DNA of 64,000 nucleotides from Verrucomicrobiota bacterium (GTDB lineage: Bacteria > Verrucomicrobiota > Verrucomicrobiia > Limisphaerales > UBA11358). The stretch is taken from the NCBI GenBank assembly GCA_049510295.1, contig JBEKZC010000004.1:4224-68223 (forward strand), written 5' to 3'. Below the pieces are notes generated by a model. The model searched no databases. It was not told the DNA's origin and saw nothing but the letters and a program-made list of their open reading frames with translations. How positions within the stretch are numbered: the first letter of the stretch is position 1; every line of letters begins with the position of its first letter. Position numbers and translations under genes: made by a program. Of this stretch, positions 11,258 through 43,113 are shown in pieces.

Positions 11258-11360
11258 ATGTTAGCCCGGGTCTGTTCCGCCGCGCTCAATGGCATTGAAG
11301 CGTATCCCGTCGAGGTCGAAGTCAACGCCGGTTATGGCGACACCCTCGTCGTAATAATTG
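11258..11360 (+). pseudogene. comM: comM/yifB fragment 1 (N-terminal 34 codons), interrupted
   Basis: MLARVCSAALNGIEAYPVEVEVNAGYGDTLVVII matches the ComM/YifB N-terminus. The reading frame then runs into foreign DNA (..ETI*). Confidence 0.8.
11353..11360. repeat. attL core AATAATTG of insertion 1
   Basis: The identical 8-mer recurs at 21789..21796, exactly where comM homology resumes. Confidence 0.65.
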
Positions 11361-11751
11361 AGACGATATAACCCATTTTGGAAGCAACCAGTCAGAAGCC
11401 TTGGTTTTGTTGGGGAATATTGGCGTACCATTCCCAGCGCCAGAACTCGCCCCAGACCAATTGCCAGCCGATTTCCAGACCGATTGGCCGTCAACATCGT
11501 CAAACGGTTTTGACGGTCCCGACACTCAATCGGCTCTCCCTCGTTCCTGAACGAACACGCTGAAATTATCGGTTTGTGGACGGCGGCGGCGTGGCAGAAC
11601 ACGAAAGCGGATTGCTCCACGGTCAGCGAATGCCTCACGGCAATTCAGCCGTGTGGCATTTTGCACGCTTGACTTTGTTTGGTCTCGGCTGTGAGATGGC
11701 AATTAGTCCACATTAAAAAAGACGGACTTCTGGTTTCTGAAAGGACACGAT

Positions 11752-12654
11752 ATGAAAAGGACACAACTGGCGGTTACGACAATTTCAATAATCATTGGTG
11801 CTTTGCTGTTGAACGGGCCGCTCAAAGCCGATGTTGTGATCTTCCAAAGTGGAACCGTTGTTGTTGGCAATGTTCTTCAACAAGACGATGATGGCGTTCT
11901 AATTCAGATGGATTACGGCACGCTTCGTTATCCATCTTCAATGGTTAAGGACGTGCATAAAGGAGAAGCCGCGCCAGCTACTAATTCTCTAGCCGTTTCA
12001 AGAATTCCCAATTGGGCAAAAATTATTTCTCAGCTTGCAACAAACGGATGGGCACACGATTTGAAGCAAATTCCCGCAACGGTGATTGATAATGGTGTTT
12101 TGCAGAATGTTCCTTACATTTCGTTTCGTTGTAATGCTGGTGGCTACGAAATAAATGTTTACGGTGACTTAGATAATCCTGCGGGTGTTGAAATTGGAGC
12201 AATCAATTACAATGTGAAAAGTGGCGTGGCAAAAAGCAATTGCGTGAATTTTATCTGTTCTGTGCTTCCCTCTGACAAGGATGAAAAAGTCGTACATGCA
12301 TTAAACTGGAACCCAAAAGACGTGCAAAAAACAAACGGGATGACGTTTGAAATCACACTTCCGTCTGAACCTGATGCGTATGGTGGTTGGTGGATTTCAG
12401 TCTATGATGAAAACGCATTAACAAATGCACGGGCTACTGGCGCAGAACTGCTCTCTATTACACAGCCTCGCATCGTAACAAAAGTGCATCCGGTTGCGAC
12501 AACATCAGTGGCAGATTCGGCTTGGTCTTCTGATGATATTTCAAGTGCTCGTCCAACCGCGTCTGATTCTTCAAATAATGGCGGCACTGTTTATGTTCGC
12601 GGATATTATCGCAAGAACGGGACATACGTTAACGCCTATACACGGCGTCGTTAA
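11752..12654 (+). CDS. Secreted hypothetical protein
   Basis: 300 aa with an N-terminal signal-like segment (MKRTQLAVTTISIIIGALLLNGPLKA). No motif recognised. Confidence 0.5.
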   Translation: MKRTQLAVTTISIIIGALLLNGPLKADVVIFQSGTVVVGNVLQQDDDGVLIQMDYGTLRYPSSMVKDVHKGEAAPATNSLAVSRIPNWAKIISQLATNGWAHDLKQIPATVIDNGVLQNVPYISFRCNAGGYEINVYGDLDNPAGVEIGAINYNVKSGVAKSNCVNFICSVLPSDKDEKVVHALNWNPKDVQKTNGMTFEITLPSEPDAYGGWWISVYDENALTNARATGAELLSITQPRIVTKVHPVATTSVADSAWSSDDISSARPTASDSSNNGGTVYVRGYYRKNGTYVNAYTRRR

Positions 12655-12699
12655 TAGTCGTGAACCAGCCTTCGGCGGCGTAAGGTTGCCGCTGGTCAT

Positions 12700-13221
12700 T
12701 CAAGGCAAGTTTTGTTTTGAAAGGACTTTGCCCGTGTAAGCTTCTGAATGTTTCAAATGCGCCTGCCAGTTGGCCGTGTATTTTTCAGCCAAATCAGCAT
12801 CCTGAATCACCAGCAAATTTTCGGCATTGTTTTCTTCTGCGGCCTTCGTGAAGTTGAAAGAGCCTGTTAAGATCGTCTTGCCGTCAATCACCATGATTTT
12901 GTTATGAGCAATAGCGTGTTTGGCGTCAATAAATGTTGGAATGCCCGCATGTTGGACAAAATCGGCAGAACTGTATTTTTCGGTGCGTTGGCTTTTATCC
13001 AAAATCACTTCCACGTTTACGCCGCGCTTGTGTGCATCCACGAGGGCTTTGGCAATCGGCGCGCTGGTAAATGAATACGCTTGAACTAAAATAGAATTCG
13101 TTGCCTTGTTAAGATTTTCCACGACGGCTTCAGTGCAACCACCCTTGGGGGAAAAGAAAACCTGAATGTCAGCAGCTTGGATTGAGACGGCTAAAAAAAG
13201 GGCAAGCAGGATTGATTTCAT
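12700..13221 (-). CDS. Phospholipase D-family endonuclease (Nuc-like), secreted
   Basis: 173 aa with a signal peptide (MKSILLALFLAVSIQA) and a single HKD motif (AIAHNKIMVIDGKTILTGSFNFT). The size is typical of Nuc. Confidence 0.8.
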   Translation of the reverse strand: MKSILLALFLAVSIQAADIQVFFSPKGGCTEAVVENLNKATNSILVQAYSFTSAPIAKALVDAHKRGVNVEVILDKSQRTEKYSSADFVQHAGIPTFIDAKHAIAHNKIMVIDGKTILTGSFNFTKAAEENNAENLLVIQDADLAEKYTANWQAHLKHSEAYTGKVLSKQNLP

Positions 13222-13522
13222 GCATTCAGGTTAATCAGGAACACCAGAAGTGTTAAGAGATTTTCGGTCACCTGATTTTTCCAGTTTGAGGACGGCGGTG
13301 GCGTGGCAGAATACGAAAGCGATTTTGATAATAGCGCGGGTCATCCTGCGCACCGAACAACGACGCGAACTTGCAAGCCGATTGAAAACAACTATTATCG
13401 CGGCATGGCAGAAAAACCGCCAAATACCACTGCGACTGGCGCGCCAGCCACTACGTCAAAGCCATGCTCGACCAGATTTTCGGTAAATTGATGCAACAAT
13501 AACCCCTAACGAACCTGCATTT

Positions 13523-15001
13523 ATGACTGAATCTAAAACCAGTTGCCCAAAATGTGGCGGGCACGTCATTTTCCCGAATGAACTATCGGGACAAGCAATT
13601 GCATGTCCACATTGCAACGAAACATTTTTTCTGCCTAAGCTAAAATCTGTCACTCCTTGGGTAATTACAGCCGTATTCGCCTTAATTGCCATTTGTCTCG
13701 GTTCGTTACTTGTTTTCCAACGCCACAAGGGAATCAGCGAGCCACAAACTCATTCGTTTGCAAAGCCAAACACAACGACAGAAAATTCTACAAAAGCACA
13801 GCCTGACGTAAAAGTATCGAAAGGCGCAGATGACCAAGCCATTGAAAATCTTTGCAAAGAATTTTATGATGGTTTGTCTGCGCAAGACGCCAAATCTATT
13901 TACGGGTTGCTGTCTGAATCATGCAAGAAAGCCTTAAATCCACAGGACATATTTATTGACGGTGCAAAATATGATTTTGAGAATTTGGAATCTGTCCAAT
14001 ATCAGAACGGAAATCTTGGAAGGAGTGCGTTAGCAAAAGTAAGGCGCAGAGTGCAAAGCAACTTTGTTGGCTCACAAGAAGGTTTGCGAGATTTGAAATT
14101 CGTCAAAGAGTCGGATGGCTGGAAATATTTTCCCATGAACGACCTTGCAAGAAAAATTGTAAGCGAATTCATAAAGTCTGGTTTCACCGACCAGCTTAAT
14201 ATTGACATCCAATTGCTGCGAGACGGCGATCCCTTCACCGATTGGAATAAGGACAACACAAATGCCTTTGAAGCGATTTTCAAATTTGACCAAGGACGCG
14301 ATGGTGTTTTCCCTTGGGATCTCGAATTTGCTATTATAAGCAATACGGTTGACGGCATGACGTTGGTTTTGAATTACAGTATTCGTAATAAATCCTCAAC
14401 GCCGTGGCCCTCACCGTTGCTTGAATTTAATTTGAAAAGGGGCGGCAAAATTGTTTTGAGCGGAAACGATCTATTGCCAAATGTTCAAAGTGGTCAGGAG
14501 CTTCAGCGGAGCACTTCATTCTTTCTCGCAGGCCAGCCACAACAAACAACTAAATACGATCTAGACGTCAGTTGTCCAGATGGATTTCAAAACAACATCC
14601 AGCTTGTGCAAAATATTCCCTTGGAATTCAAAGTCCACCCTGTTTCAGAACTCGCAAAGCTAGAAATCGTCGGCACGCAGTTTGATCAAGCTACAAGCGA
14701 AGATTTTAAAGATATGTTATCAGCACGGATAGATTATCGAGTTAAAAATATCAGTTCCGAGCCAATACAGAGCCTTGATGTTAAATGTGTATGGTATTCA
14801 CTGACCGGAGAACAACTTGATCAATCCACAGAATATGTGATTAGCTACGGTGACGTGCCGTTAGGCATGGGACAATTCAAAACAGGTTTTGTCCGGTGCG
14901 GCAAGGGGTATAGTAATAGTCGCGTGCCGGTCAAAGTTGATGTTTATTTGGAATCGGGTGAAAAGAGAAGCCTTGTCGTTAAAGGTTTGCTAATTCAATA
15001 G
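13523..15001 (+). CDS. Membrane-anchored hypothetical protein with an N-terminal zinc ribbon
   Basis: 492 aa: CPKCGG..CPHCNE, then one TM span (WVITAVFALIAICLGSLLVF), then a large unassigned domain. Confidence 0.5.
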   Translation: MTESKTSCPKCGGHVIFPNELSGQAIACPHCNETFFLPKLKSVTPWVITAVFALIAICLGSLLVFQRHKGISEPQTHSFAKPNTTTENSTKAQPDVKVSKGADDQAIENLCKEFYDGLSAQDAKSIYGLLSESCKKALNPQDIFIDGAKYDFENLESVQYQNGNLGRSALAKVRRRVQSNFVGSQEGLRDLKFVKESDGWKYFPMNDLARKIVSEFIKSGFTDQLNIDIQLLRDGDPFTDWNKDNTNAFEAIFKFDQGRDGVFPWDLEFAIISNTVDGMTLVLNYSIRNKSSTPWPSPLLEFNLKRGGKIVLSGNDLLPNVQSGQELQRSTSFFLAGQPQQTTKYDLDVSCPDGFQNNIQLVQNIPLEFKVHPVSELAKLEIVGTQFDQATSEDFKDMLSARIDYRVKNISSEPIQSLDVKCVWYSLTGEQLDQSTEYVISYGDVPLGMGQFKTGFVRCGKGYSNSRVPVKVDVYLESGEKRSLVVKGLLIQ

Positions 15002-15197
15002 TCGCCAAAAATACTCATGAATTATTTGCACTACGATTTACAACTTGAGCAAAATTTGGCCCCGATTAAAACCCCGCAACCAAGTCCCGCACCCGAACAC
15101 CAAGAGCCTTGGCGATTTTCACTAGATTGTCCACCGACGGTGATTCAACTCCCCGCTCAATTCGGCTAATAAACACGTTGGAGGGGGCGGCTTTACC

Positions 15198-15416
15198 TCA
15201 AAGGTTGCCAACCACATCCCGCAATTTGATGCCAAGGACTTTGGTAATTTTCAGGAGGGCATCAATCGTGATTGCCCGGTCAGCTCGCTCCACTTGGCTG
15301 ATGTAAACCGGGTGCAGATTGGCCTTTTCCGCCAACTTTTCTTGGGTCATCCCGCGTTTCTTGCGGAACCTGCGGACATTCTCGCCAATTCGTTTGTGCG
15401 CCTTAAATGTGGACAC
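15198..15416 (-). CDS. XRE-family helix-turn-helix regulator
   Basis: 72 aa: ..RRFRKKRGMTQEKLAEKANLHPVYISQVERADRAITIDALLKI.. Confidence 0.8.
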   Translation of the reverse strand: MSTFKAHKRIGENVRRFRKKRGMTQEKLAEKANLHPVYISQVERADRAITIDALLKITKVLGIKLRDVVGNL

Positions 15417-15560
15417 TGGCGCTTACAAAAGCAGGTTTTGGACGAACATTCCATAAGCTACGGGCTTATTAAGCTATCAGGCTTAGTTTATGCTTGCCTG
15501 TTGACGGGGAAAGGAGTCGGCTCCCAGAAAACTGACGGAGAACCAGCAAATTACAAAATT

Positions 15561-16187
15561 ATGGCTGACAAAGATAAAAAACCGAGCCTCTTGGAGACGA
15601 TTGCCTTTTTGGTTGTCGTGTTCATCGTGGCGGCTGCGTTGTATAAACTTTTCACTGAATTTTGGAAGTGGGCGACGACCAACAGACGAAGGGCTCGGAT
15701 TTGCCTGCCAATTCTGTTCTGGATACCGCTTTTCGGGCTTGTCAGACCCACTATCGTCCTGTTTTTGATGACCACAGGCATGGCGGAATATTCAGATGAA
15801 CATTCGCTAATCTCAGACCAGCAGCTTCTTGTCAATTGGTCAGCCGCGATTTTTGCTCTGATTATTTCGCTGATTATCACCAGAACGGTGGCGCGGAAAA
15901 TTCCCGAAGAGACGATTTCCCCAGAACCGCCAACGGCAAGCATCATTCCTCAAAAGGAAAAATCAGGCGAAACACCGGGTGAAACTCGTCATGGAATACA
16001 AAAAATCGGAACTCGTGGCTTGTTTGGATGCGCTTTGTGTGTCCTCGGCATCATCCGTTTGTTGGCTGCTAACGACTTGGCAGAGGACGCATTGGAAAGA
16101 AACATCGGCACCGGAATTCTGGATATTGTCAGTGGATTGTTGTGCGTGGTTTGGGGGTATCGGAAATATGGCGCAAAAAAATCGTGA
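15561..16187 (+). CDS. Multi-pass membrane protein, unknown function
   Basis: Internal ATG at 15561 of ORF 15294..16187 (MADKDKKPSLLETIAFLVVVFIVAAALY..). The upstream part of that ORF is antisense to the XRE gene. Confidence 0.45.
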   Translation: MADKDKKPSLLETIAFLVVVFIVAAALYKLFTEFWKWATTNRRRARICLPILFWIPLFGLVRPTIVLFLMTTGMAEYSDEHSLISDQQLLVNWSAAIFALIISLIITRTVARKIPEETISPEPPTASIIPQKEKSGETPGETRHGIQKIGTRGLFGCALCVLGIIRLLAANDLAEDALERNIGTGILDIVSGLLCVVWGYRKYGAKKS

Positions 16188-16197
16188 CCCCGCAATT

Positions 16198-16866
16198 TCA
16201 TGCGTTTTGAATTTTGAGAACGTTGCTGACCGTGGACGGATACCACGTCTTGCCGGAACGGGTCGCAACTCCCCTGCGGTTCAGACAATCAGCAATTCCC
16301 TGTAATGTCTGAACACCCGCCAAACGGATTTCCTCAATGACCGGCAGAATTTTGGCTGCGAATTCCGACTTGGCCGTTTTGTTTGCCGTTACCATCGCGG
16401 CCACGGCCCGTTCTGGCTCGGGTGTTCCGAGCCGCATTCCTCTGTTCTTGGCTGCGGCCAATGCCGACTTGGTTCGTTCTGAAATCAGTTCCCTCTCTCT
16501 TTGGGCGACCAGCGCCAAAATCCCTATGGTGAAACGGTCAGCATTCGGGCAGTCGCAGCAAATGAAATCTGCGCCGCTGTTTTGGAGCCGCAAGAGAAAT
16601 TCGGCGTTTCTCGCCAGCCTGTCCAGCTTGGCGATTACAACTGTGCCTTTGGATTTCTTGGCGTAATCCAGTGCCGCAGCCAACTGTGGCCGTTCATCCT
16701 CCGTCCATTTGCCGGATTCCACTTCGGCGAATTCTTTTTCCAAAACCCCGTGCTGGCCTTCAACGAACCGCCGAACCGTGTCGCGTTGTGCCGACATTCC
16801 GTATCTCCCGTCCATCCCTTGTTGTTTGGTGCTCACTCTGTAATAGGCGATGTAGTTTTTATTCAT
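16198..16866 (-). CDS. Small serine recombinase (resolvase/invertase type)
   Basis: ATG at 16866: MNKNYIAYYRVSTKQQGMDGRYGMSAQRD.. (catalytic Ser context), ..VVIAKLDRLARN.., and a C-terminal HTH-like region. Confidence 0.8.
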   Translation of the reverse strand: MNKNYIAYYRVSTKQQGMDGRYGMSAQRDTVRRFVEGQHGVLEKEFAEVESGKWTEDERPQLAAALDYAKKSKGTVVIAKLDRLARNAEFLLRLQNSGADFICCDCPNADRFTIGILALVAQRERELISERTKSALAAAKNRGMRLGTPEPERAVAAMVTANKTAKSEFAAKILPVIEEIRLAGVQTLQGIADCLNRRGVATRSGKTWYPSTVSNVLKIQNA

Positions 16867-17055
16867 GGGGACACTGGTAAACGGCCCGCTCTGTCCCCGG
16901 CAACGAGGATTTACAAAAACTATACGGTGGCAAAGTGCCTGTAAAACCGCGTAAAAATGCTCCTTTTGCTGCGACGGTGGTATGGAAGATGTTCCAGACA
17001 TGCTGCTGATTTTTAACCAGCCGCCACCACTTAATTTAATCCATCACCCCTACTA

Positions 17056-17086
17056 CCTCCATTATGCCACCGTAAAGGTAAACATC
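17056..17086 (+). repeat. 31-bp direct repeat, copy 1 (cctccattatgccaccgtaaaggtaaacatc)
   Basis: An exact second copy lies at 18967..18997. The pair brackets the 470-aa gene. Confidence 0.8.
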
Positions 17087-17324
17087 GGTGGTTGGAACGT
17101 GGCTACGGACAAGCGTATGGGAATGTGTCTGGCCTTGCGCCAGTTTGCGTATGGGCCGCTTTTCTCCACGTCTTTACTTGAATACGTGTTCCGGCCCCAA
17201 TGCCAAACCGAACCCGGAATTAGAACGGCCATCCTTGGGGGTGGCACCCCGCGCAAATCATCGTAATCAGAAGGCCACCACGGATGGCGGGGGTGGGCAC
17301 CAGCGCGGGAGCGGGGGGAAGTGG

Positions 17325-18737
17325 CTACCGTGTCAGCAGTTCACCCTTCACCACCACCGGCATCTTAAACTTTTCCACGGATTGACGCTGGATGAACGCC
17401 TTGACCTTTTCCAGTTTGGTCGGAAGTTCTGGATCATCCGGTTCCGCGAACACGCCCACGCCGTCATATTCATAGGCCAGCGTCAGCCCTAATCCGTCGG
17501 CGTAACTGTAAAGTGCCGGGTCCAGCATCAGCACCCCCTCGTAGTATTCTGAAATACAGCAGCCGGTGCGTTCACGCGGCATCGTAGCCCAGACCTTCAC
17601 CATTTCAGGAAAGAACCTCCTGAACCATCGTTCAAGTGCCCGCATGTCGGTTCTGTTTTTTTGGCCATCAGTCCGGCGTGTGTATTCTTTCCCCCCGTTC
17701 AACCATGTATTCAGGCACTCCTTCATGTCGCTCAGGTCAATGCTCAGACCAGCCTCTTTCATAATTGTGGCCCGCGGGTCAATCGTCGGATGCGTGAAAA
17801 TGTAGGTCCATCGGCCATGCTCAACCAGAAGAGCCAGCAAGTTTACTTCTCGCTTCAATTTGGCAGCCACTTCAAGGTCTTTTGGAGTCGGATGCGTGTC
17901 GGTGGTTCTGCCGTCGTATTCGGCGATGGACGACAGGAAGTAATCGCGTAGAAATTCGCCAAGGAACGTCGGGTGACATGCTCGGATGTCCAAAATCGCC
18001 ACGTATGGTTTGCCCTTGAACCGCGCCAATGGTTTGTATTCCCTCGGCAGGTTGACAAAGTTGTTGTAAATCCTGCCATCTTTGATTTCCAAATCACTGA
18101 ATTTTTTCTCCACGATGGCGGATACATGGTGAACCGCTGAACGGTATGTGCCGGGAGCCTCAACCTTGTCCTGTTCCAATCGGCTCCACACCGCATCCCT
18201 GTCAAACGTGACAGCCGTTGTGAAGGCGTTGACGATTTGCTTCTCCGGCTCCGCGTAAACCCTGTCCCTCACCTTTCGCTTGGAAATGGCCACCTGATTG
18301 CGCCGCCAAGTGGACGGGTCTTTCAATAGTTTGTAGAGCCACTGGTGGTTTCCTTCCAGCACCAGTTTCCGGCCAAGGGGGGTTATGGTGTATTTGCGGC
18401 ACTCGCCGGGAATGCCGTAATTGGGTGGTGGCCGGTAGGTGGTAAAATCTATCAGTTCAAGTTTGCGGAGCGCATTACGAAACTTTGTGTATGATTGAGA
18501 ATATGGCCGGAAACGGTCTGCGATGTCCTTGTAATCCCACGTCACCGGCTTGTCATCGTTCCGCTCCATGCCGGCATCAATGGCGGTCAGCCAATACTGC
18601 GCCGTGTTTATGGCTTTCGGCTCCGCTGCGAAAACGGGATGGGTGATGAGCAGGTCAAAGAAGTTCCGGCTAACCTTCACCCTGTTCCAAACCCTGTAGG
18701 GCGATGCGGCTGCTGTTTTGGTCGCGTCTGTGCTCAT
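17325..18737 (-). CDS. Hypothetical 470-aa protein of the integrative element (possible replication/mobilisation role, unproven)
   Basis: Long ORF with good coding look and no motif I can name. The position between resolvase and LSR, flanked by 31-bp direct repeats, suggests an element-maintenance function. Confidence 0.4.
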   Translation of the reverse strand: MSTDATKTAAASPYRVWNRVKVSRNFFDLLITHPVFAAEPKAINTAQYWLTAIDAGMERNDDKPVTWDYKDIADRFRPYSQSYTKFRNALRKLELIDFTTYRPPPNYGIPGECRKYTITPLGRKLVLEGNHQWLYKLLKDPSTWRRNQVAISKRKVRDRVYAEPEKQIVNAFTTAVTFDRDAVWSRLEQDKVEAPGTYRSAVHHVSAIVEKKFSDLEIKDGRIYNNFVNLPREYKPLARFKGKPYVAILDIRACHPTFLGEFLRDYFLSSIAEYDGRTTDTHPTPKDLEVAAKLKREVNLLALLVEHGRWTYIFTHPTIDPRATIMKEAGLSIDLSDMKECLNTWLNGGKEYTRRTDGQKNRTDMRALERWFRRFFPEMVKVWATMPRERTGCCISEYYEGVLMLDPALYSYADGLGLTLAYEYDGVGVFAEPDDPELPTKLEKVKAFIQRQSVEKFKMPVVVKGELLTR

Positions 18738-18966
18738 TCATGCTGTGCGTATAAAATTCCTCCCGGCGGGTAACGTTAAGACGCGACTCTTTTGTTCCAC
18801 AGCATTGACTGAAACCTGTTACCGCGTGCCGGGAGGGAAAATGTTTTTGTTCTGCTGTGTCATTCGCGCCATTGCCAATAAATAGGCCGTTCCACTGGCA
18901 CCAGTCAACTTTTTGCTAAAAACCACAATACCGCTTATCCTTTATTACAATATACCCTTCCCTCTC

Positions 18967-18997
18967 CCTCCATTATGCCACCGTAAAGGTAAACATC
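18967..18997 (+). repeat. 31-bp direct repeat, copy 2
   Basis: Identical to 17056..17086. Confidence 0.8.
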
Positions 18998-19065
18998 CCG
19001 GTGGAACATCCGGCTTCGGGTCGGTCAGGATTGACGCTGGGCTTGGTTTTCATACATTGTGCCGC

Positions 19066-19407
19066 ATGAGCGATAACGTCACGATGGACAATTTCTTGGA
19101 GCCGCTAACCCCGGAGCAAAAAGCGCGGCAGAATGCAATGGCGGAAATCAAAGAAGAGATGGGCAAACTAAAAACGACTCTGCGGAATGAAGTGCGGGTG
19201 CTGAAGAAGAAAAGAGGGGATGAGCTTATTCCGAGCAAACAAGCCATTTTGAACGAGCAGATTGCGAAAAAGCAGAAGGACTTTGATGATGTTGGCTGCC
19301 TGCTATACAGCACGACAACAACCGCCGCTAAAGAGCGTCAGGACTACTTCAAGCGGCTTATCAAATGGGATGAAATCATGCGGAAACACGGCGTGCCGGG
19401 ATATTAG
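19066..19407 (+). CDS. Hypothetical small protein (113 aa)
   Basis: Internal ATG at 19066 of ORF 18913..19407 (MSDNVTMDNFLEPLTPEQKARQ..). Charged and helical. Confidence 0.4.
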   Translation: MSDNVTMDNFLEPLTPEQKARQNAMAEIKEEMGKLKTTLRNEVRVLKKKRGDELIPSKQAILNEQIAKKQKDFDDVGCLLYSTTTTAAKERQDYFKRLIKWDEIMRKHGVPGY

Positions 19408-19435
19408 TCAGACCACAAACTGCTGGCGCAGTAAG

Positions 19436-19467
19436 AACCCCCGGCGTCCATCCCACCGGGGGTTTTG
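19436..19467. terminator. Bidirectional rho-independent terminator-like hairpin
   Basis: cccccgg (19438-19444) pairs with ccggggg (19456-19462) and is followed by tttt. It lies between convergent genes. Confidence 0.55.
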
Positions 19468-19481
19468 TTCGGGTAAGGGGA

Positions 19482-19940: not shown

Positions 19941-20007
19941 GGGGGCGCAAAACTGGCAAGCGACGGGATAGATTTTTTGCGCCGTGATGGCGTGAGGCTG
20001 AACCGAC

Positions 20008-32561: not shown

Positions 32562-32771
32562 CGCGAGAACCACTCCCAAATTATTTAACACGACATCGAT
32601 CGGATTCACCAAAGTGATGCCGGATTGGTTATCCGTGGCGCATACCAACCCCACAGGCTGTAATGTTGCAGCGTCAACGACGAGTGACCCCGAATCGCCT
32701 TTCTGTGCGAACGGCTGACCATTCACACCTTCAATGAGCCCGGTGTTTGGGCCCGGTGTTGACCAAGCAGG
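32562..32771 (-). other. 70-codon stop-to-stop frame encoding a GDSGS serine-protease-like C-terminus; overlaps the S8 stop
   Basis: I translated this by hand: PAWSTPGPNTGLIEGVNGQPFAQKGDSGSLVVDAATLQPVGLVCATDNQSGITLVNPIDVVLNNLGVVLA*. It has no ATG and is offset by one nt from the S8 frame. Confidence 0.3.
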
Positions 32772-35700: not shown

Positions 35701-37098
35701 CCAGGGTTCCACATTATATACGTCGCTCCAATTGGCCACGGCAATCAGCTGGCCGGCGGGCAACTGGAGCGAGATGCTCGTGAGTTGTTGCACCCTGCCT
35801 GGCTGCCTCCACACCCGGCCGCCGAGCGACCGGAGGCTGGCCAGCGTCTGGTTGACGTTGGGCGAGTTGAACACTTGAACGGTCACATTGACCATCTGGT
35901 TGGAAGGCTGGCTCGAAGCGATTTCTTGCAATGAGGCCTCCAGCCGGTAATAAGGATGATAGGCATGATGGCCTGTGATGTAGGACCGGGTTGCCGCCAG
36001 TTTGTCCAGTCTGGCCAGGCTCTGCAAATTTCCCCACACGACGTACCCATTGGCAGGAATGTACCAGACTGTCTGCACCCCCGTGTTCTTCAGCTCGGAC
36101 AGCCAGGCATTCTGAATCGGGCCGGCGTATTGCACCATCCAAAATTGAAAGCCATTTGTGCGCGCCTCACTCAGGTTGGGCGGAATGCCCGGCTCGCCCG
36201 TCTGAGTGTTGATCTGAAGCCCGCCTCGAAGAGGCATCGCGTCGAAATCATAGCGGATGGTCACGCTGGGCGCGTTCAACAGCGCTGGTGGAGCCTGGCT
36301 GGCCGTCACGCTCCAGAGCGAAAAAGCGGTGTAATTGGCGAGGTTGACGGCTCCACTCGCGGCCAGTTGACTGGTCCGGTTGGTGTCGGTTCTGTCAACC
36401 AGGATCTTGTGCGCAAGATTCGTCTCTATAATGGCGCTCAGGTTCATGCCGAACACAACGTCCGGGTTGGTGGGTGTAGTCTGGTGAACTTCCACCGCCA
36501 CTACATTGTCACCCTGGACAAGACTTCCAGTTGAAAAAGTCAAGGGCTGCACCTCTTCTCCGGACGACGCGCTGGCAGCAGGAGTTTGATCGGTGACAAC
36601 CCCATCTGGCATCCGCAACCGCCCGACCTCCGTTCCATTCAGGTAAAACACTGCCCCGTCGGCCACGTAATTGGACGCAATCAGCGCGAAACCGACAGTA
36701 TTGGCGGGGAGCGTGAAATGAGTCCTGAAGTAATGCGTAATCCGGCCTCCTTCAGGTGTCAGCCTGGTTCGAATCGATACCGGGTATGGGTGGCGCACGT
36801 CGGTGTAATGGCCGAAAAAACCTGATCCCTGCTGCCAGGCGGAATCGTCATACACAGCACTCCTCCACACAGTGCCCTTGCCGGCACTTGGTTTCAGGCG
36901 GATTAGTTCTTCAGGCTTTCCGCTCGTGGTTTGACTATCGTCGTATCGCCAGGAATTCGTGAAATTGAGCAATTCGCCAGCGTTGGCATTGGGTGTCATG
37001 AAAACAAGACAAGAAACCAACGCCACAAACATCCTGACAACTATTATTGTAACAATGTTCCATTTGTTTTTTATCATATGGTACCTATGGTGGCTCAT
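32731..37098 (-). CDS. Secreted subtilisin-like serine protease (peptidase S8) with large N- and C-terminal extensions
   Basis: 1455 aa with a signal/TM N-terminus. Asp region VDVVDDGVDNG, His region GLQGHGNLNAGIVAA, Ser region CSGTSQATPAVAGSASLIYE. Confidence 0.8.
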   Translation of the reverse strand: MSHHRYHMIKNKWNIVTIIVVRMFVALVSCLVFMTPNANAGELLNFTNSWRYDDSQTTSGKPEELIRLKPSAGKGTVWRSAVYDDSAWQQGSGFFGHYTDVRHPYPVSIRTRLTPEGGRITHYFRTHFTLPANTVGFALIASNYVADGAVFYLNGTEVGRLRMPDGVVTDQTPAASASSGEEVQPLTFSTGSLVQGDNVVAVEVHQTTPTNPDVVFGMNLSAIIETNLAHKILVDRTDTNRTSQLAASGAVNLANYTAFSLWSVTASQAPPALLNAPSVTIRYDFDAMPLRGGLQINTQTGEPGIPPNLSEARTNGFQFWMVQYAGPIQNAWLSELKNTGVQTVWYIPANGYVVWGNLQSLARLDKLAATRSYITGHHAYHPYYRLEASLQEIASSQPSNQMVNVTVQVFNSPNVNQTLASLRSLGGRVWRQPGRVQQLTSISLQLPAGQLIAVANWSDVYNVEPWISPTLQDEVQGQIVAGNVVTSGVNIVPQPTTNATYTPYRLWLVSKGFPLNPTNYPIVDVVDDGVDNGQAASPGHPDFYYFGITNNASRIAYIGSLTSDPLGDGLQGHGNLNAGIVAAYDTGTLSPDSIDTNGYNIGMGISPLGRVAGTKIFGNTGDYTSQSDAGVVGYSYGHGAGLTSDSWGASTYGVYNAEDQAYDSLTRNASNSSPAALHEMLDVFAAGNDGNNTMTPAPPSTVASPGSAKNVLTVGATENVRVVPPVYGNGNCWPDTASNADNVAYFSERGPTADGRYKPDIMAPGTKIQGLASQDPGYNGGSVCLQYYPPGQTWYAMCSGTSQATPAVAGSASLIYENYHNLLSYQNEGNPTTPSPAMLKALVINSARYMASGNYGTDTLPSDNFGWGDVDLGLAFDGLPRLLVDQTQIFNSSGSSYTYPGTLSVYDTTKPLRVTLVWSDAPGNTTGNAYVNDLNLTVTAGGTYLGNVFSGQYSTPGGSADTKNNVENVFLPAGVTNPITVTVTANNLAAGAIPGNTNPVNQDFALVIYNAIQATTPVADVYIRDDAADNGTEPNPNYVNNTANMWESPDIWNRLDPAPDSTQTYEQPEYGVDNYINVHLWNHGTTRVPTSVTATGVVKLYWAYGSSSLSWPNQWNWFADIPTTVPANSDQIVNILWHPPSTGHICIMAQWVSGQDPLHAQLTSDVNFNTGENNNIAWRNMEIVTAPPNTPIIYSFIMRNPVGSGTSAVVYNLRLRALPTTKSDTFLGKGQIFFDLGPTLHQRWLRAGAQGTGFKLVTDRQTSIIGSSTFSVGDLVNLPSLASRLKQPADAVSLYLKGRLSAATLKTLAKYQGTDHDPSSQTALVKDFNRIIRGQSIYDAQRFAGVVLRPETQLLLTQNPEGDDLLRLNRLLLEDAYPMEISRSRIVFQVLNAAGTYIKGIPINPGEDVMVNLKFISQTKQARVFKVDATQMTVSNTTIGGMTCLVNTGPKHRAH

Positions 37099-37523
37099 TT
37101 ATAAATGCTAAATACGTTATCAACCGACGGCCCAAAACTGAAGGCGCAGCCCTCATTATCGACAACTGTGCCGCTCACGCAGTTCATGCGGCACCAAGGC
37201 CACCAAAGCTTCAGCACTACCTCGTTCAAAGTGTTCCCCTTGGTGGGAATCCGAAATTCCTTTTCGGTCTTCTCCATGTGCAGCTTGAAGGTCTCATGCG
37301 GGAGACAACGGACGAATTGAAACGGGGGAAAATTGATCAGAAGAGAGATAATTCTTGCCTGCCAGCCTTGTATACGCATCAGCCGTTCGCCTAAATCCCT
37401 TCGTCTTTTACTTTTCATGCCTAGCCCCATGACACGCCCAAAACATGATGCCTCAAAGGCGAATTCCTTTTTACACTGCTCGAAAAATAATGCAAGAACT
37501 TTTCTAATAATTCGATTTGTCAC
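37095..37523 (-). CDS. Hypothetical protein, translationally coupled to the S8 protease
   Basis: 142-aa ORF whose stop overlaps the S8 start (ATGA). No motif recognised. Confidence 0.35.
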   Translation of the reverse strand: MTNRIIRKVLALFFEQCKKEFAFEASCFGRVMGLGMKSKRRRDLGERLMRIQGWQARIISLLINFPPFQFVRCLPHETFKLHMEKTEKEFRIPTKGNTLNEVVLKLWWPWCRMNCVSGTVVDNEGCAFSFGPSVDNVFSIYK

Positions 37524-37617
37524 GATAATGATACATTCCTGTTACCGACTCGGCGGATAAAAGCCAAAAACCATGCTGTAATCTATGGCCTCTACGGGGG
37601 CGCTGGATAAGGTAACT

Positions 37618-37964
37618 GCCTTTCACAAAAAGGCAACGACTCGGGGTTCGTTGCCTTTGGCTGTTTTGGGCATTATTTCGCCAGTTTCTCGAACGGGTTA
37701 TAGCCCAGATACGCAACGATTCGAGCGTGATAGGGAGCGGTTGGAAACAGCCTATCGCATTCCCAAAGACTCAGAGACCTTGCGCTAACCCCTAGTATTT
37801 GAGCGGCTTCCGATTGCCGGATTCCCGCGCCAAACCGTTTCTTCTTGAGATGTTGGCCGAGGGTCGTAGGCTCCTTTGCAATTGGAAAACTGCGAGTCCA
37901 AACAGGTGCAACGTCTTTGCGCGGCACGCTCACAAGCCCGTCGCAAAAAGGCAACATCGCGCAC
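37618..37964. repeat. HTH1 unit copy 2
   Basis: Near-identical to copies 1 and 3; includes the hairpin at 37629..37658. Confidence 0.85.
37673..37957 (-). CDS. Small XRE-like HTH protein, HTH1 copy 2
   Basis: 94 aa: MLPFCDGLVSVPRKDVAPVWTRSFPIAKEPTTLGQHLKKKRFGAGIRQSEAAQILGVSARSLSLWECDRLFP.. Confidence 0.65.
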   Translation of the reverse strand: MLPFCDGLVSVPRKDVAPVWTRSFPIAKEPTTLGQHLKKKRFGAGIRQSEAAQILGVSARSLSLWECDRLFPTAPYHARIVAYLGYNPFEKLAK

Positions 37965-38080
37965 CGACTTTATTGAGGTCAGTTGTATGAACTTGTGATT
38001 GCATGCTGTTTTTATTGAATCACTTGCAAAACCTCTCAAACAGGCAACGTTCGGGGGAGGTTTCAGAAATTCCACATTTC
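37965..38080. repeat. Junction right-arm repeat (module C start)
   Basis: Homologous to 28860..28972. It overlaps the 3' end of HTH2. Confidence 0.7.
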
Positions 38081-38421
38081 CAACAGTATGAATCGGGGCT
38101 TCGTTTTCTCGGAACCGGCACAGGTGGTGTGTAGCCAAGAAATTCCCGAATCTTCTTTGTCATCCTGCGCGATGGAGGGGTGATACCGCGCTCCCAATTG
38201 CTGACCGATGCGGAAGAAATTCCAATCTTTGCGGCAACGTCTGATTGCAACCAGTGCAATTCCAGGCGGTGTTTTTTGATTTGCTCGCCGAGTGTCTGTG
38301 GCTGTACCGGAATTCGCTGGTTCAATTTCCAATGCCGTGGGTATGGCCGGCGTGGCCGGGAAGTCTGAACAGGACAGAGCGAGAGAAGGAGCAGTATGTT
38401 TTTTATATGGAGTGGTTGCAT
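38020..38421 (-). CDS. XRE-like HTH protein, HTH2 (distant paralogue of HTH1)
   Basis: 133 aa: ..QPQTLGEQIKKHRLELHWLQSDVAAKIGISSASVSNWERGITPPSRRMTKKIREFLGY.. Only a 3' relic of the equivalent gene remains in module B (28950-28972). Confidence 0.6.
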   Translation of the reverse strand: MQPLHIKNILLLLSLCPVQTSRPRRPYPRHWKLNQRIPVQPQTLGEQIKKHRLELHWLQSDVAAKIGISSASVSNWERGITPPSRRMTKKIREFLGYTPPVPVPRKRSPDSYCWKCGISETSPERCLFERFCK

Positions 38422-38562
38422 AAATTATCATGCAACCATCACTATTCCTGAGACGACTTCTAGTGAGAATTTAAAACAGCTTCGGTGATGGCGCTCTATT
38501 TTTCTGGCGCAGACATCAAAAAAAGAGTAATGTTCTAATGGATTCCAAAGGTGTAGTTTTCG

Positions 38563-41500
38563 GTGGCTCGGAGAATAAAATCTGTTACTCCGCTGCCCAA
38601 TGAACCACGGGATATTGAAGTTGTTTTGCAAGATGGCGAGCTGAATTTGCAACGGGGAGATGCCGCTGCCAGCTTGGCAATAACTAGACACCAGGGTATG
38701 TGGCAAGTGTTGAAAACTGTGGTTGCGATGAGCGTGGCCGATGTTGTTGGCTTCGGGGCAAAATTACGCACCCTGGGGGTGATGTCTTTAGCCGGTTGCC
38801 AGCGGCAAACCATTCCCGCGCTGTTCCTCCTCCTGTTCACGCCGGTCACGGCCTTTGGCGAAAACCTGCCACCCCAATCAATCCGGGTTGTGGTGGACAA
38901 CAATTACCCGCCTTATGTGTTTCAGGACAATGACGGGAAGTTGCAGGGGATACTGATTGATCAATGGCGGCTCTGGGAGAAAAAGACGGGCATCAAGGTC
39001 GAGATTCAGGGCATGGATTGGAGCGAAGCACTCCGTCGCATGGAGGCCGGTGAGTTCGATGTGATCGACACCGTTTTCAAGACCGAGGCGCGAAGCGCCT
39101 TCCTCGATTTTTCGAAACCGTATACCCGGATTGAAGTGCCGATTTTCTTCCAAAGAGACATCTCCGGCATCACTGACCTGAAGTCGCTCACAGGATTCCC
39201 CGTCGCCGCCAAGGCGGGAGATGCCGCCATCGACCTGCTCAAACAGAATGACATTACCACAGTGCTGCTGTTCAACAACTATGAGAGTATCGTCAAGGCC
39301 GCGCAACAGCGCAAAGTCAACGTGTTTGTCGTAGATGCTCCGCCGGCGCTTTATTTTCTCAACAAACTGGACATCGGGACCCAGTTCAGACGCTCAGCGC
39401 CAATCAACGTGGGTGAATTTCATCGGGCGGTAAGGAAAGGAAATACCGCCCTGCTAAAAACAGTTGAAGCAGGCTTTGCCGCCATCACGCCCGGTGAATT
39501 GAAACAGATCGAGGAGAAATGGTACGGGACAACCCTCGCCGGCGGTTTTTATTTGCGCTACCTGGGATACGTTGCGACCGCAGGGGTGCTGTTCGTTTTG
39601 GTTTTGCTCGGTTGGAACCGCGCGCTCAGCCGGGAGGTCAAAAAACGGGCGACCGCTTTGCAGGAGAGCGAGGTGCAATTCCGGCTCATCATGGAGAACC
39701 TGGCGGACATGGTGGCCGTGCTTGATTTGGACGGAAACCGCTTTTACAACAGCCCCTCCTACCGGGCCATCCTGGGCGACCCGGACAAGCTGCGTGGGTC
39801 GTCCTCTTTCACTGAAATCCACCCGGAAGATCGGGAACGGGTTGAACAAGTGTTTCGGGAGACAGTCCGGACGGGCGTCGGACAGCGTCTGGAATACCGC
39901 TTACTGGACCAGGCTGGCCAGGCGCGTCAGATTGAATCCCAAGGCAGCGTGATTCGAGACGGCCAGGGAAAAGTCTCCAAAGTGGTGGTCGTGTCCCGCG
40001 ACGTGACCGAGCGCAAGCGGGCGGAGATTCGCATTCAATACCTTAACCGGGTCTATGCCATGTTGGGCGACATCAACCAGACCATCGTGCGGGTGCGTGA
40101 CCAGCAGGAATTATTTACCACCGCCTGCCGCATCGCGGTTGAAACCGGAAGATTTCGCTTGGCGTGGATTGGCCGGCTGGATCCAACCTCCCGGAAGATT
40201 GAACCGGTCGCCCACACCGGTGTGAACGAAGGTTACCTGGAGCAATTGAACATCGTGCTCGGTGAGAATATCAACGCCGACGGCCCGACGGCCACCGCAG
40301 TGCGCTGTGGCAAACACATGGTCTGTAATGACATCGAGCACGACCCGCGCATGGGCTCGTGGCGGGAAGAGGCATTGCGGCGCGGCTATCGCGCTTCGGC
40401 GGCGTTCCCGCTCAAGGTCGGCGGCCGGATCATCGGCGCTTTTAACCTCTACGCCAGTGAACCGGGGTTTTTCGACGAGGATGAACTGCGTCTGCTGGAT
40501 GAACTGGCGACAGACATTTCCTTTGCCATGGAAGTAAATCAGCGCGAAGTAGAACGCCGACAAGCGGAGGATGAGTTGCGCTGGAGGACGGCTTTCTTTG
40601 AAGCCGAAGTGGATTCCTCCCTTGACGGCATATTGGTGGTGGACAGTCAGGGAAAGAAAATTATCCAGAATGAGCGGATGAACGAATTATTGAAAATTCC
40701 CAGGCATATTGCCGAGAACAAGGATGATGCCCAGCAGCTCCAGTTCGTCACAAACCAGACTAAAAACCCCAAGCAGTTCATCGAGAAAGTGGCCTACCTT
40801 AATTCCCATCCGGATGAGGTCAGCCAGGACGAGCTGGAATTGGTTGATGGAACGATCCTGGAAAGATATTCGTCGCCCGTCCGGGACAAAGCTGGAAAAT
40901 ATTACGGAAGAATCTGGACCTTCCGCGACATCACCAAGAGCCGGAAGCTGGAAGCCCAATTCCGCCAGTCCCAGAAAATGGAAGCCTTTGGCCAGCTGGC
41001 CGGCGGTGTGGCCCACGACTTCAACAACATCCTGACCGTGATTCACGGCAATGCCTCCCTGATGTTTGACGAACAATTGAAGCCCGCTGAACGAACCGAC
41101 TGCGTGCACCAGGTCGTCCAAGCCGCCGAGCGCGCCGCCAGCCTGACCCGCCAATTGCTCCTGTTCAGCCGCAAGCAGGCCATGCAACCGGCCAACCTGG
41201 ATTTGACCGAGGTGGTGGGCGGCATGACGAAGATGCTTAAGCGCATCCTGGGCGAGGATATTGCCTTGCAGACCGATTTCGCGCCGGATTTGCCGCCCGT
41301 GTTTGGCGATGCCGGCATGATCGAGCAGGTGCTTTTGAACCTGGCCGTCAACTCCCGCGACGCCATGCTCCGGGGCGGCCGATTGACCATCACCACCGGA
41401 GCGGAAATGGTGGAACAAAAGCAGGCGCTGCAAAATCCCGACTCTTCGCCCGGATTGCACATCTGGCTGGCGGTCAGCGACACCGGTTGCGGGATCGCCC

Positions 41501-42102
41501 CGGAAAATCTGCCGCGCATCTTTGAACCCTTTTTCACCACCAAAGAGGTAGGCAAGGGCACCGGCCTTGGACTGGCCACCGTTTATGGCATCGTACAACA
41601 ACATCATGGCTGGATTACCGTGACCAGCGAAATCGGCAAAGGCACCACGGTTCGTGCTTATTTTCCTGCCGCGACCGGCGCAAAGGCCAACGAAAAAAAT
41701 GTATCGGCCGTGTCACAACCGCCGTGCGGCCAGGAAACCATTCTGGTCGTCGAAGATGATTTGTCGGTCCGCCTGCTGACGACCCTCCTTCTGCAACGCT
41801 GCGGCTACAATATCTTGCAAGCTGACTCGGGAACGGCGGCGCTGGAAATATGGCGGGAGCACAAGGGGCAAATCCAACTTCTGTTGACGGACATGGTCAT
41901 GCCGGGCGGTTTGACGGGCCGGGAACTGGCCGAACAGCTCGGCCGGGAACAAAGCGGACTGAAGGTCATTTACATCAGCGGTTACAGCCTAGAGTTCACC
42001 AAAAAAGAACTTTCCCTGATCGAAGGGCGAAATTTTCTTCAGAAGCCGTTCTCCTCGCTCAAGCTGGCACAAACCGTGCGCGACGCCCTGGATGCCAAAT
42101 AA
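38563..42102 (+). CDS. Hybrid sensor histidine kinase (periplasmic SBP-3-like domain, PAS, GAF, PAS, HisKA, HATPase and receiver)
   Basis: The track ORF starts at a GTG at 38563; the more likely start is Met at 38782 ([26 protein letters not shown]). H-box [15 protein letters not shown]-box [12 protein letters not shown]-boxes [21 protein letters not shown], receiver [22 protein letters not shown]. Confidence 0.85.
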
Positions 42103-42294
42103 GTCTGTCCGGGCAAAGCGGACTTAATCTTTGAAAATCTGATGGATTCCAAGTCGCTCTTCCTGACCCCAGACACGGAACATTCATAGAATTGGCGGTT
42201 TGGAAGGGTGGCGAATCCACCCTTATAACCCTGGTCACCAGATGGCAAAAGGGGTGCAAAAACGACAGGATTCGTACCCTCATATCGGATGACC

Positions 42295-42641
42295 GCCTTT
42301 CACAAAAAGGCAACGACTAGGGATTCGTTGCCTTTGGCTGTTTTGGGCCTTATTTCGTTGACTTCTTGAAAGGGTCATAGCCTAGATACGCAACGATTCG
42401 GGCGTAATAGGGAGCGGTTGGAAACAGCCTGTCGCATTCCCAAAGACTCAGAGACCTTGCGCTAACCCCTAGTATTTGAGCGGCTTCCGATTGCCGGATT
42501 CCCGCGCCAAACCGTTTCTTCTTGAGATGTTGGCCGAGGGTCGTAGGCTCTTTTGCGATTGGAAAACTGCGAGTCCAAACCGGGGCTACGTCTTTGCGCG
42601 GCACGCTCACAAGCCTGTCGCAAAAAGGCAACATCGCGCAC
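42295..42641. repeat. HTH1 unit copy 3, truncated at the comM junction
   Basis: Near-identical to copies 1 and 2 up to ..aacatcgcgcac. comM sequence follows instead of the cgacttt.. arm. It includes the hairpin at 42306..42335. Confidence 0.85.
42350..42634 (-). CDS. Small XRE-like HTH protein, HTH1 copy 3
   Basis: ATG at 42634 (MLPFCDRLVSVPRKDV..). The track ORF adds 3 codons from a GTG at 42643 that lies in comM DNA. Confidence 0.65.
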   Translation of the reverse strand: MLPFCDRLVSVPRKDVAPVWTRSFPIAKEPTTLGQHLKKKRFGAGIRQSEAAQILGVSARSLSLWECDRLFPTAPYYARIVAYLGYDPFKKSTK

Positions 42642-43113
42642 ACCTGACGGCAAAATGCCGCACGAATCGAGAAGCTCGCCGCGTGAAATCCAGAATTATC
42701 TGGGCCGGATTTCGGGACCGTTGCTCGACCGGATTGATTTGCACGTGGAAGTGCCGCCGGTGAAATTCCGGGAAATCGCCGGCGACCGCACGGGTGAAAC
42801 CTCGGCGCAAATCCGTGAGCGCGTCGTGGCCGCGCGCCGCCGCCAGCACGAACGGTTCAAGTCCAAACCGAAGATCACCTGCAATGCCCGGATGGGCACG
42901 CGCGAATTAAAGCAATGCTGCGAACTGGATGAGGGGACGAAGGAACTGCTGAAAAACGCAATGGCCGATTTGAATTTGAGCGCCCGGGCCTACGACCGGA
43001 TTTTGAAGGTGGCGCGGACGATTGCGGATCTGGCCGGCTCGGAAAAAATCCTGAGCGACCACATTTCCGAAGCGATTCAATATCGTTCCCTCGACCGGCA
43101 GATTTGGAGCTGA
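42642..43113 (+). pseudogene. comM: comM/yifB fragment 3 (C-terminal part)
   Basis: ..PDGKMPHESRSSPREIQNYLGRISGPLLDRIDLHVEVPPVKFREI..LNLSARAYDRILKVARTIADLAGSEKILSDHISEAIQYRSLDR.. is the Mg-chelatase C-terminal domain. The upstream part of track ORF 42553.. is antisense HTH1. Confidence 0.85.

Follow-up and report, generated by a model that had tools for sequence, protein, structure and literature searches.

In Acinetobacter, the AbaR/AbGRI islands interrupt a gene of the comM family; AbaR islands are Tn7-like transposons that encode Tni/Tns proteins and generate a 5-bp target-site duplication. Here we describe a comM gene that is interrupted at two places, found in a 64,000-nt stretch (referred to as the window) of contig JBEKZC010000004.1 from a peat-bog Verrucomicrobium. 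The initial annotation likened this locus to the AbaR hotspot, and the likeness stands as far as the target is concerned, as in both cases a comM-family gene is interrupted by accessory DNA. The mechanism, however, differs: the junctions in the window share 2-bp identity only, serine recombinases are encoded at or beside them, and no TnsA/B/C or TniA/B/Q was found in Pfam/NCBIfam scans of the main open reading frames (ORFs) of the insertions. We consider it likely that two different serine-recombinase attachment sites in this one comM are both occupied, site 1 by an element encoding its own large serine recombinase (LSR; here LSR1), and site 2 by a tandem array of modules that would depend on a recombinase supplied in trans.

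LSR elements that split genes have been described in several bacteria. In Wolbachia, the sr1WO prophages of phage WO are integrated by a large serine recombinase inside a magnesium chelatase gene, the two halves of which lie on both flanks, and the joined flanks constitute attB (PMC9203015). The locus described here likewise has LSR-type junctions in a gene of the Mg-chelatase family (ComM/YifB-like), but its elements are not phages, and two sites are used in one gene, one of them with a recombinase-less module array. For skin in sigK, SPbeta in spsM, and the comK phage of Listeria, LSR-driven excision and gene reconstitution have been documented; these are intervening elements and cases of "active lysogeny." The comM locus resembles them in that the gene interrupted by an LSR element keeps its pieces undamaged and in frame (the Listeria target, comK, encodes a competence regulator); excision is documented there, whereas here the sequence is only compatible with it.

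Tandem arrays at one LSR site are known from the composite islands and psi-SCC elements of the staphylococcal cassette chromosome (SCC) at rlmH/orfX, where some units reportedly lack the recombinase (CcrAB/CcrC) and depend on one acting in trans, and where the cargo is diverse. SCC enters the 3′ end of rlmH and spares the gene, whereas the array in the window lies in the middle of an AAA+ domain; its arms are also much longer (345 bp, including a gene for an XRE-family protein), and the recombinase families are unrelated. In streptococci, accretion of integrative and conjugative elements (ICE) involves cis-mobilizable elements (CIMEs), which are att-bounded units without integration genes that lie in tandem with, or derive from, a complete ICE. 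The window shares with CIMEs the presence of non-autonomous att-bounded units at the site of a complete element, while differing in the chemistry, as tyrosine recombinases act on long identical cores in the former and the crossover here is a 2-bp, serine-type one. Tandem islands at ssrA have reportedly been described in Dehalococcoides as well. Compared with these systems, the locus represents a new family within a kind of mobile DNA that is already known. What sets it apart is that a single gene contains two different LSR sites, that the 345-bp arm is coding and has its XRE gene abutting the crossover, and that modules carry a replacement gene end. The finding is ordinary in principle, yet it adds two new att/LSR pairs and, for uncultured Verrucomicrobia, a system of cassette-like islands.

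The split comM gene and its uninterrupted counterparts

The comM gene of the window lies in three pieces on the + strand, which we delimited by translation, alignment to empty sites and blastn (below, L numbers refer to loci or contigs of relatives, such as L095 used in this comparison, and P numbers to related proteins). The first piece (11258–11352) holds codons 1–31 and the GT that opens codon 32, this GT (11351–11352) being the crossover dinucleotide of the left junction, attL1. The second (21798–22757) continues from the rest of codon 32 to AC (22756–22757), the first two bases of the Thr codon 352 and the crossover dinucleotide of the second site, and the third (42642–43113) runs from the third base of codon 352 to the stop codon. 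At the nucleotide level, the second piece is 92–93% identical to L095–L097 over 983 nt (blastn), and the third is 93% identical to L095.

The initial annotation had read these stretches as successive parts of one ComM/YifB protein, and both protein profiles and uninterrupted relatives agree with this. The joined protein contains the ChlI (PF13541, residues 33–145, 7.8e-42), Mg_chelatase (PF01078, residues 196–398, 3.3e-89) and Mg_chelatase_C (PF13335, residues 406–503, 9e-36) domains and a Walker A motif, GPPGTGKS, so that everything expected of a ComM/YifB member (a ChlI/Lon-like N-terminal domain, an AAA+ domain, Mg_chelatase_C, and a length of ~500 aa) is present. Across joint 2 the alignment is gap-free, profile positions 1–205 of 207 of Mg_chelatase being covered in a single unbroken stretch. 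The segments first proposed (11258–11360, 21797–22757 and 42642–43113) do add up to 1536 nt in an unbroken frame of 511 codons and a stop, but joint 1 had been placed 9 nt off, which adds three surplus residues, VII, that are absent from all eight aligned relatives. After this correction the product is 508 aa rather than 511 aa, and matches its orthologs from end to end.

At joint 1, the crossover falls on the dinucleotide GT, present at 11351–11352 (attL) and 21796–21797 (attR). Joining the pieces at GT reproduces, base for base around the joint, what L095, L097, and L081 have at their empty sites, and we chose this dinucleotide because it is the sole option giving 508 aa, the length of nearly all of the best 120 matches. 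The resulting attB1 is ...ACCCTCGTC-GT-CATTGTCGGCC..., and the reconstructed attP1 is GGTTATTTCAACCCAATAATT-GT-AATAATTGAGACGATATAACC (also written CCCAATAATT-GT-AATAATTGAGACG). attP1 forms a palindrome centered on GT with 16 of 22 arm positions symmetric, whereas none of 20,000 random positions in the window reached 15 or more, and the motif GGTTAT occurs in the left arms of both attB1 and attP1 at the same distance from GT. Site 1 therefore has the features typical of LSR sites: a 2-bp central dinucleotide, absence of a target duplication, and an attP of ~40–50 bp that is imperfectly palindromic. The 8-bp repeat AATAATTG, which occurs at both ends, was also considered as the core of this joint and rejected, since every dinucleotide within it yields at most 11 of 22 symmetric attP positions and a product of 511 aa.

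Uninterrupted comM genes are common in related genomes. A genome scan retrieved at least 599 ComM relatives, the closest of which, among the matches listed, are Limisphaerales/Verrucomicrobiia metagenome-assembled genomes (MAGs) with 86–88% aa identity and a single 508-aa gene each (including L001–L003); apart from comM itself, L001–L007 have no match or synteny with the window. In a large protein collection, nearly all of the best 120 comM matches are exactly 508 aa, and the nearest proteins are P0001 (97% identical) and P0122 (503 of 508 residues). The contigs encoding P0122 (L095–L098) display the empty locus, in which an intact 508-aa comM has as its immediate downstream neighbors a Cytochrom_D1-like gene, an AsnC regulator, and an aminotransferase, the window counterparts of which are found from 53062 onward. 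Both joints in these contigs consist of the attL left half followed by the attR right half. L095–L097 share ~92–93% nucleotide identity with the window and are sister lineages, i.e., a different strain. Set against the empty allele, the window contains three additional blocks: insertion 1 (11353–21797) and insertion 2 (22758–42641), both inside comM, and an intergenic block (43110–53061). The earlier view that the ~30 kb between the comM pieces is accessory is thus upheld, because this DNA is absent from close relatives that have comM directly before the genes found from 53062 onward in the window. The expected uninterrupted comM was found in relatives as well; the extracytoplasmic function (ECF) sigma factor operon, which the initial annotation took as flanking synteny, lies in a block that is itself extra relative to the empty allele.

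The element at site 1 and the module array at site 2

Insertion 1 (11353–21797, 10,445 bp) is an integrative element with its own LSR, and is absent from L081 and L095–L098. LSR1 (579 aa, 20008–21747, − strand) starts 48 nt inside the right end (attR), and combines the Resolvase (PF00239), Recombinase (PF07508), and Zn_ribbon_recom (PF13408) domains with the serine motif in its N-terminus; its match in PHROGs is the phrog_95 integrase (1.9e-82). Insertion 1 thus has the hallmark of an LSR element, a three-domain recombinase encoded beside its att site. It also encodes a small serine recombinase of the invertase/resolvase type (222 aa, 16198–16866, − strand; PF00239, 4.9e-26; phrog_125 DNA invertase, 5.3e-33), a gene that is also called in metagenome contigs, and, as cargo, a DrmC-like nuclease of the PLD family (12700–13221, − strand; PF13091, 1.8e-28; PADLOC DrmC, 1.2e-15; phrog_12711), besides six ORFs without a family match. 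A PHROGs scan of its ORFs found no phage structural genes, and no relatives of LSR1 or of the site-2 recombinase discussed below were found in IMG/VR. Two 34-bp direct repeats (17053–17086 and 18964–18997, 97% identical) flank a 470-aa ORFan (17325–18737, − strand) beside the small recombinase, and a partial inverted copy lies at 16920–16937 near the start of the small recombinase gene; these repeats are possible substrates of that enzyme.

Insertion 2 (22758–42641, 19.9 kb) is organized differently. Self-comparison revealed three copies of a repeat of 345–350 bp, 91–94% identical and referred to as R, at 28515–28859, 37615–37964, and 42292–42641. The first two copies are followed by a conserved stretch of ~113 bp, 88% identical and referred to as L2, and a more diverged L2 forms the left end of the insertion. 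As the R and L2 arms repeat with AC at each boundary, insertion 2 consists of three head-to-tail modules, the cargo of which we assigned by Pfam and NCBIfam scans. Module A (22758–28859, 6,102 bp) contains L2 (22758–~22870), a 434-aa helix-turn-helix (HTH) protein (23103–24407), a SIS-SIS-mannitol-dehydrogenase fusion (24563–28486, + strand), and R with its XRE ORF (28556–28852, − strand). Module B (28860–37964, 9,105 bp) contains L2 (28860–28972), a radical SAM/SPASM peptide maturase (29538–31202), an IS1595-type transposase fragment (31799–32191), and a 1455-aa S8 peptidase (32731–37098), all on the − strand, followed by R with the XRE ORF at 37673–37957 (− strand). Module C (37965–42641, 4,677 bp) contains L2 (37965–38080), an XRE regulator (38020–38421, − strand), a hybrid histidine kinase (38563–42102, + strand), and R with the XRE ORF at 42350–42634 (− strand).

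Alignment of the four junctions shows that AC is the sole sequence common to all of them. The middle part of comM passes into module A as comM...CCCG-AC-GCACTTT, the boundaries between modules A and B and between modules B and C both read ...ATCGCGC-AC-CGACTTT, and module C passes into the comM 3′ piece as ...ATCGCGC-AC-ACCTGAC...comM. In order, the junctions are therefore of the types B-AC-P′, P-AC-P′, P-AC-P′, and P-AC-B′, and attB2 is ATGAACCCG-AC-ACCTGACGGC. If excised, the modules would be predicted to form circles with the junctions ATCGCGC-AC-GCACTTTGAGG and ATCGCGC-AC-CGACTTTATTG. Each R carries a 94–98-aa XRE-family ORF on the − strand, its ATG lying 7 nt from the crossover, and all three R arms end in AAAAAGGCAAC-N7-AC, the end shared by the family of elements at the AC site. 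The initial annotation had proposed two independent site-specific integrations; the site specificity and the independence of the two sites hold, but insertion 2 is not a single integration, being made of three modules with a 345-bp arm, and comM holds at least four module-level units.

No recombinase was found in insertion 2, either by Pfam/NCBIfam scans of its 11 main ORFs or, as remnants, by tblastn with LSR1, the small recombinase, and P0270, a member of the cognate LSR family described below. The tblastn search with P0270 hit only LSR1 in the window, at 22% identity, and a cognate LSR of ~500 aa, encoded at the left end and reading into attL, is absent from the window. The three modules are therefore non-autonomous relatives, rather than complete members, of an element family whose complete members are found elsewhere; like CIMEs and psi-SCC elements, they have att-type arms, lack a recombinase, and stand in tandem at the site of a complete family.

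To characterize this family, we examined 80 metagenome loci with the R-arm XRE (a protein family with 170 members, 67–90% identical) and nine others, which yielded 68 distinct junctions after ...GCGC-AC. The sequence that follows is the comM 3′ part in 34 of these, an L2 arm in 21, and AC-N7-GTTGCC in seven (other sequences account for the remaining six). The R end, GGCAAC-N7-AC, and AC-N7-GTTGCC are exact inverted counterparts of each other. In L110, the palindromic GTTGCC arm joins the middle part of comM, and an LSR gene reads into the junction; a search with this LSR uncovered its family, which numbers more than 5,700 proteins of ~500 aa. In L188–L191, the 3′ end of the LSR gene overlaps the truncated comM at the junction ATGAACCCG-AC-AGGTTTC-GTTGCCTTTTT, and upstream of the LSR are genes for a TrwB/TraG-like coupling protein, ArdC, and RadC, by which complete site-2 members look like ICE or integrative and mobilizable elements, as predicted from gene content. 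Both ends are contained in the 45-kb contig Ga0116111_1000264 (L108 and L189), which runs from the comM 3′ piece and R through ~44 kb to the LSR and the middle part of comM. The attP of the site-2 family is AAAAAGGCAAC-ATCGCGC-AC-AGGTTTC-GTTGCCTTTTT, with the general form AAAAAGGCAAC-N7-AC-N7-GTTGCCTTTTT. Complete members end on the right in the conserved 345-bp R arm with its XRE gene; the modules of the window have this R arm in common with them, but their left arms are degenerate. Since the cognate LSR sits at the same junction in relatives, the AC site is the attB of an LSR element family, which is widespread in Limisphaerales. LSR1 is 22% identical to the cognate LSR and their att sites are unrelated, and because joint 1 is intact and only joint 2 is occupied in L188, the two sites in comM are filled independently.

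The cargo between R arms is extremely diverse across loci. Some modules are minimal: in L107, L159, L160, L174, and a 34,502-bp NCBI/ENA contig, they consist of a comM 3′ copy, ~110 bp, and R, and L157 has two comM 3′ copies 7 kb apart. Integration of such a minimal module regenerates both a full-length comM and attB while leaving a displaced 3′ copy behind, which offers a simple route to repeated insertion. Clustering of 1,087 ORFs from 89 loci, with Pfam searches of 190 representatives, revealed no recurrent recombinase within 10 kb of the R arms and only two unrelated LSRs.

Several further features of the array and its target site were observed. Around comM codons ~350–368 (22750–22757 and 42642–42700 in the window), the clade with the AC attB has lost a four-cysteine motif of other ComM proteins, NPCPCGY.G....C.C being replaced, in the alignment of relatives, by NPTPDG---KMP.ES.SS, which is three residues shorter, precisely at the attachment site; this form may have been imported with element-borne replacement 3′ ends. 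Each R arm is bounded on its inner side by a hairpin resembling a terminator, AAAGGCAAC...GTTGCCTTT (28524–28553, 42306–42335, and the corresponding position of the second R). The stem uses the same 9–11-nt motif as the LSR attP arms, and this motif is seen again ~80 nt into the L2 arms (AAAAAAGGCAACGG). The motif may be an extra recombinase-binding site or merely a terminator. A scan for sigma-70 promoters over the junctions gave no match, a search that is uninformative for this phylum.

In module A, the 1307-aa fusion ORF consists of an N-terminal region of ~470 aa without a family match, two KpsF/GutQ-type SIS domains, and a mannitol-1-phosphate dehydrogenase; as the gene is called in several metagenome contigs, we dismissed a frame artefact. 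The maturase of module B has a C-terminal PqqD-like domain, its S8 peptidase has weak IetS/IteS-like matches, and small ORFs and the IS1595 fragment lie between them (29538–37523, − strand). Module B is possibly a cassette for a ribosomally synthesized and post-translationally modified peptide or for defense; no precursor peptide was identified in it.

Three other kinds of mobile DNA were considered for the locus and rejected. GGTGCGC resembles a XerC arm, which might suggest Xer/dif hijacking, yet on inspection the crossover falls inside it and comM is no dif site. An integron does not fit, since no Phage_integrase-type match was obtained among the window ORFs scanned, the repeat is 345 bp long and coding, and the AC crossover and its arms fit a serine recombinase. 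As for a prophage, the PHROGs scan of the insertion 1 ORFs and the 434-aa HTH protein returned only an integrase, an invertase, regulators, and one protein of unknown function, and Pfam and NCBIfam detected no structural genes among the other ORFs of insertion 2.

Assembly of the array and state of the gene

The sequences themselves show the junctions, the empty sites, LSR1, the architecture of the repeats, and, in relatives, the cognate LSR; catalysis, the order of insertion, mobilization in trans, and any present-day excision are inferred. At site 1 (GT, codon 32), the element would have entered by conservative attP × attB recombination catalyzed by its own LSR1. At site 2 (AC, codon 352), the modules are predicted to be non-autonomous derivatives integrated by a cognate LSR in trans, which could still move them and which may be encoded elsewhere in the genome or on an incoming element, or may have been lost since. 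Such an array would resemble psi-SCC elements next to SCCmec, or CIMEs next to an ICE.

Several observations weigh against this proposal. An intact allele of this exact strain was not found in the protein collection. Arrays at the AC site contain two LSRs that are only 24% identical to each other (the L110 type, and that of L185, which is not placed relative to a junction). That LSR1 and the cognate LSR are active is a prediction from sequence. Canonical LSRs recombine attP × attB only, attL and attR normally not being targets; stepwise growth of a P-AC-P′ array therefore calls for a hybrid site serving as a pseudo-attB, a pre-formed multimer, or homologous recombination of R copies. The L2 arms keep only ~3–4 of the six GTTGCC bases, and so may no longer be substrates.

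That the array was built mainly by homologous recombination between the ~350-bp R repeats, using circles or DNA taken up by transformation as substrates, with the LSR needed only for the first entry into comM, is possible, although we doubt it. R copies that are 91–94% identical over 345 bp suffice for RecA, this route would bypass the normal exclusion of attL and attR as LSR targets, metagenome contigs often break inside the arrays as would be expected of recombining repeats, and the extreme diversity of cargo between R arms also fits; the module boundaries, however, fall exactly at AC and lead into conserved L2 arms, rather than at variable positions in R. Two single, independent, AbaR-like islands that killed comM, as the initial annotation had it, would account for a gene cut at two places with accessory DNA in between, but we regard this as very unlikely given the three R and three L2 arms of insertion 2 with AC at each boundary, the 2-bp crossovers without target-site duplication, and the lack of Tn7-type transposition proteins among the ORFs scanned. 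Scarcely credible is an assembly chimera, or a naturally split gene with separate functional polypeptides, in favor of which there is nothing further than the annotation of the comM 3′ piece as a 152-aa protein by gene callers. We dismissed an assembly artefact because independent contigs from many samples show the occupied arrangement in virtually the same form. Of the contigs read, 23 encode the 434-aa protein of insertion 2, with the arrangement repeated at all six places shown (L084–L089), and seven more carry LSR1; samples with this strain include JGI 3300038416, 3300039310, and 3300017925 and ENA ERZ27250021 and ERZ27249797. The breaks also lie inside the ChlI and AAA+ domains, and close relatives have one 508-aa gene.

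Because of these breaks within domains, comM as it stands gives no full-length protein. Its interruption, claimed from the outset, is certain, while its inactivation is an extrapolation, as the pieces show no decay. Compared with the nearest intact ortholog (L095), the split comM has a dN/dS of 0.021 at dS 0.32, and pairs of intact genes have 0.046–0.081. Among 26 distinct displaced comM 3′ pieces beside R arms, 24 keep the full 157-codon frame, with a dN/dS of 0.118 vs. 0.096 in intact genes. The lack of decay in the split gene fits recent insertions and recurrent excision alike. Distances between R copies and between comM 3′ parts are correlated with a Mantel r of 0.2 (reached by 32 of 2,000 permutations), too weak to date the insertions.

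These values raise the question of whether the insertions are reversible switches, whose regulated excision would rebuild a working comM when competence is needed. All three pieces are in frame without a stop and have a low dN/dS, 24 of the 26 displaced 3′ pieces are frame-intact, LSR1 is intact, and attL and attR are both preserved, all of which would be expected of a switch. We nevertheless think it unlikely. An excised allele of this strain is missing from the protein collection, where exact look-ups retrieved neither the restored 508-aa and 511-aa proteins nor the product expected if insertion 1 were absent and insertion 2 present; insertion 2 has no recombinase and the window no cognate LSR; and no recombination directionality factor, which lets an LSR excise, was identified. 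Insertions that are recent on the scale of a dS of 0.32 would likewise leave dN/dS low, and as the occupied alleles are clonal, selection after insertion is not measurable. A related idea, which we put forward as speculation with the odds well against it, is that the AC site could be a reversible, LSR-operated cassette dock, at which R-bounded modules would be exchanged and excised often enough for purifying selection on the displaced 3′ end of comM to persist in many lineages. A replacement 3′ end that regenerates the gene and attB would arrive with some modules, the XRE gene 7 nt from the crossover would be rewired at each change of junction, and competence would be switched by mobile-element traffic. 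If excision is real, the state of a mobile element would be linked to a natural transformation gene.

The reading that we prefer, with site 1 occupied by the LSR1 element and site 2 by a trans-dependent array, bears on other genomes as well. The two previously undescribed LSR attachment sites come with empty-site proof and are raw material for genome-engineering recombinases. An island without an integrase in a MAG can be a chain of non-autonomous modules whose recombinase is perhaps visible only in relatives, a point that matters when the limits of islands and of their cargo are drawn. The cargo of this locus and of related arrays (restriction-modification systems, TOTE, a PLD nuclease, fusion proteins of sugar metabolism, and the pairing of a radical SAM/SPASM maturase with a giant S8 peptidase) makes them a place to mine accessory functions of uncultured peat Verrucomicrobia.

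Flanking DNA

The third extra block (43110–53061, ~9.95 kb) follows the comM stop codon, lies between genes, and is absent from L081 and L095–L097 (blastn). According to Pfam, its genes encode an ECF sigma factor, a 199-aa neighbor, and four proteins, CsgG-like segments being present in three of the four, and the block includes a putative anti-sigma factor; no recombinase, repeat ends, or conserved ends were found in it. L099–L101 have another ECF sigma operon, unlike this one, after their displaced comM 3′ piece. Further downstream, the AsnC regulator and the aminotransferase, which are adjacent in L081 and L095–L097, are separated in the window by the gene for a 405-aa DUF2971 protein (54765–55982, − strand), in DNA of low GC content (0.476). 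Conversely, in L081 the Cytochrom_D1-like gene and AsnC are separated by a 473-aa gene for which the window has no counterpart. Rfam and tRNA scans detected only a tRNA-Arg (60059–60135).

Upstream of comM, a non-coding repeat of ~110–350 bp occurs in five copies, 85–92% identical, between the genes of a radical SAM cluster (4985–5090, 5388–5736, 7110–7447, 8359–8501, and 10931–11096). It had no match in Rfam. The repeat contains the inverted segments TTCGGAC...GTCCGAA and CCCGC...GCGGG, has one copy in L095 (2428–2562), and could be a regulatory RNA or leader element.

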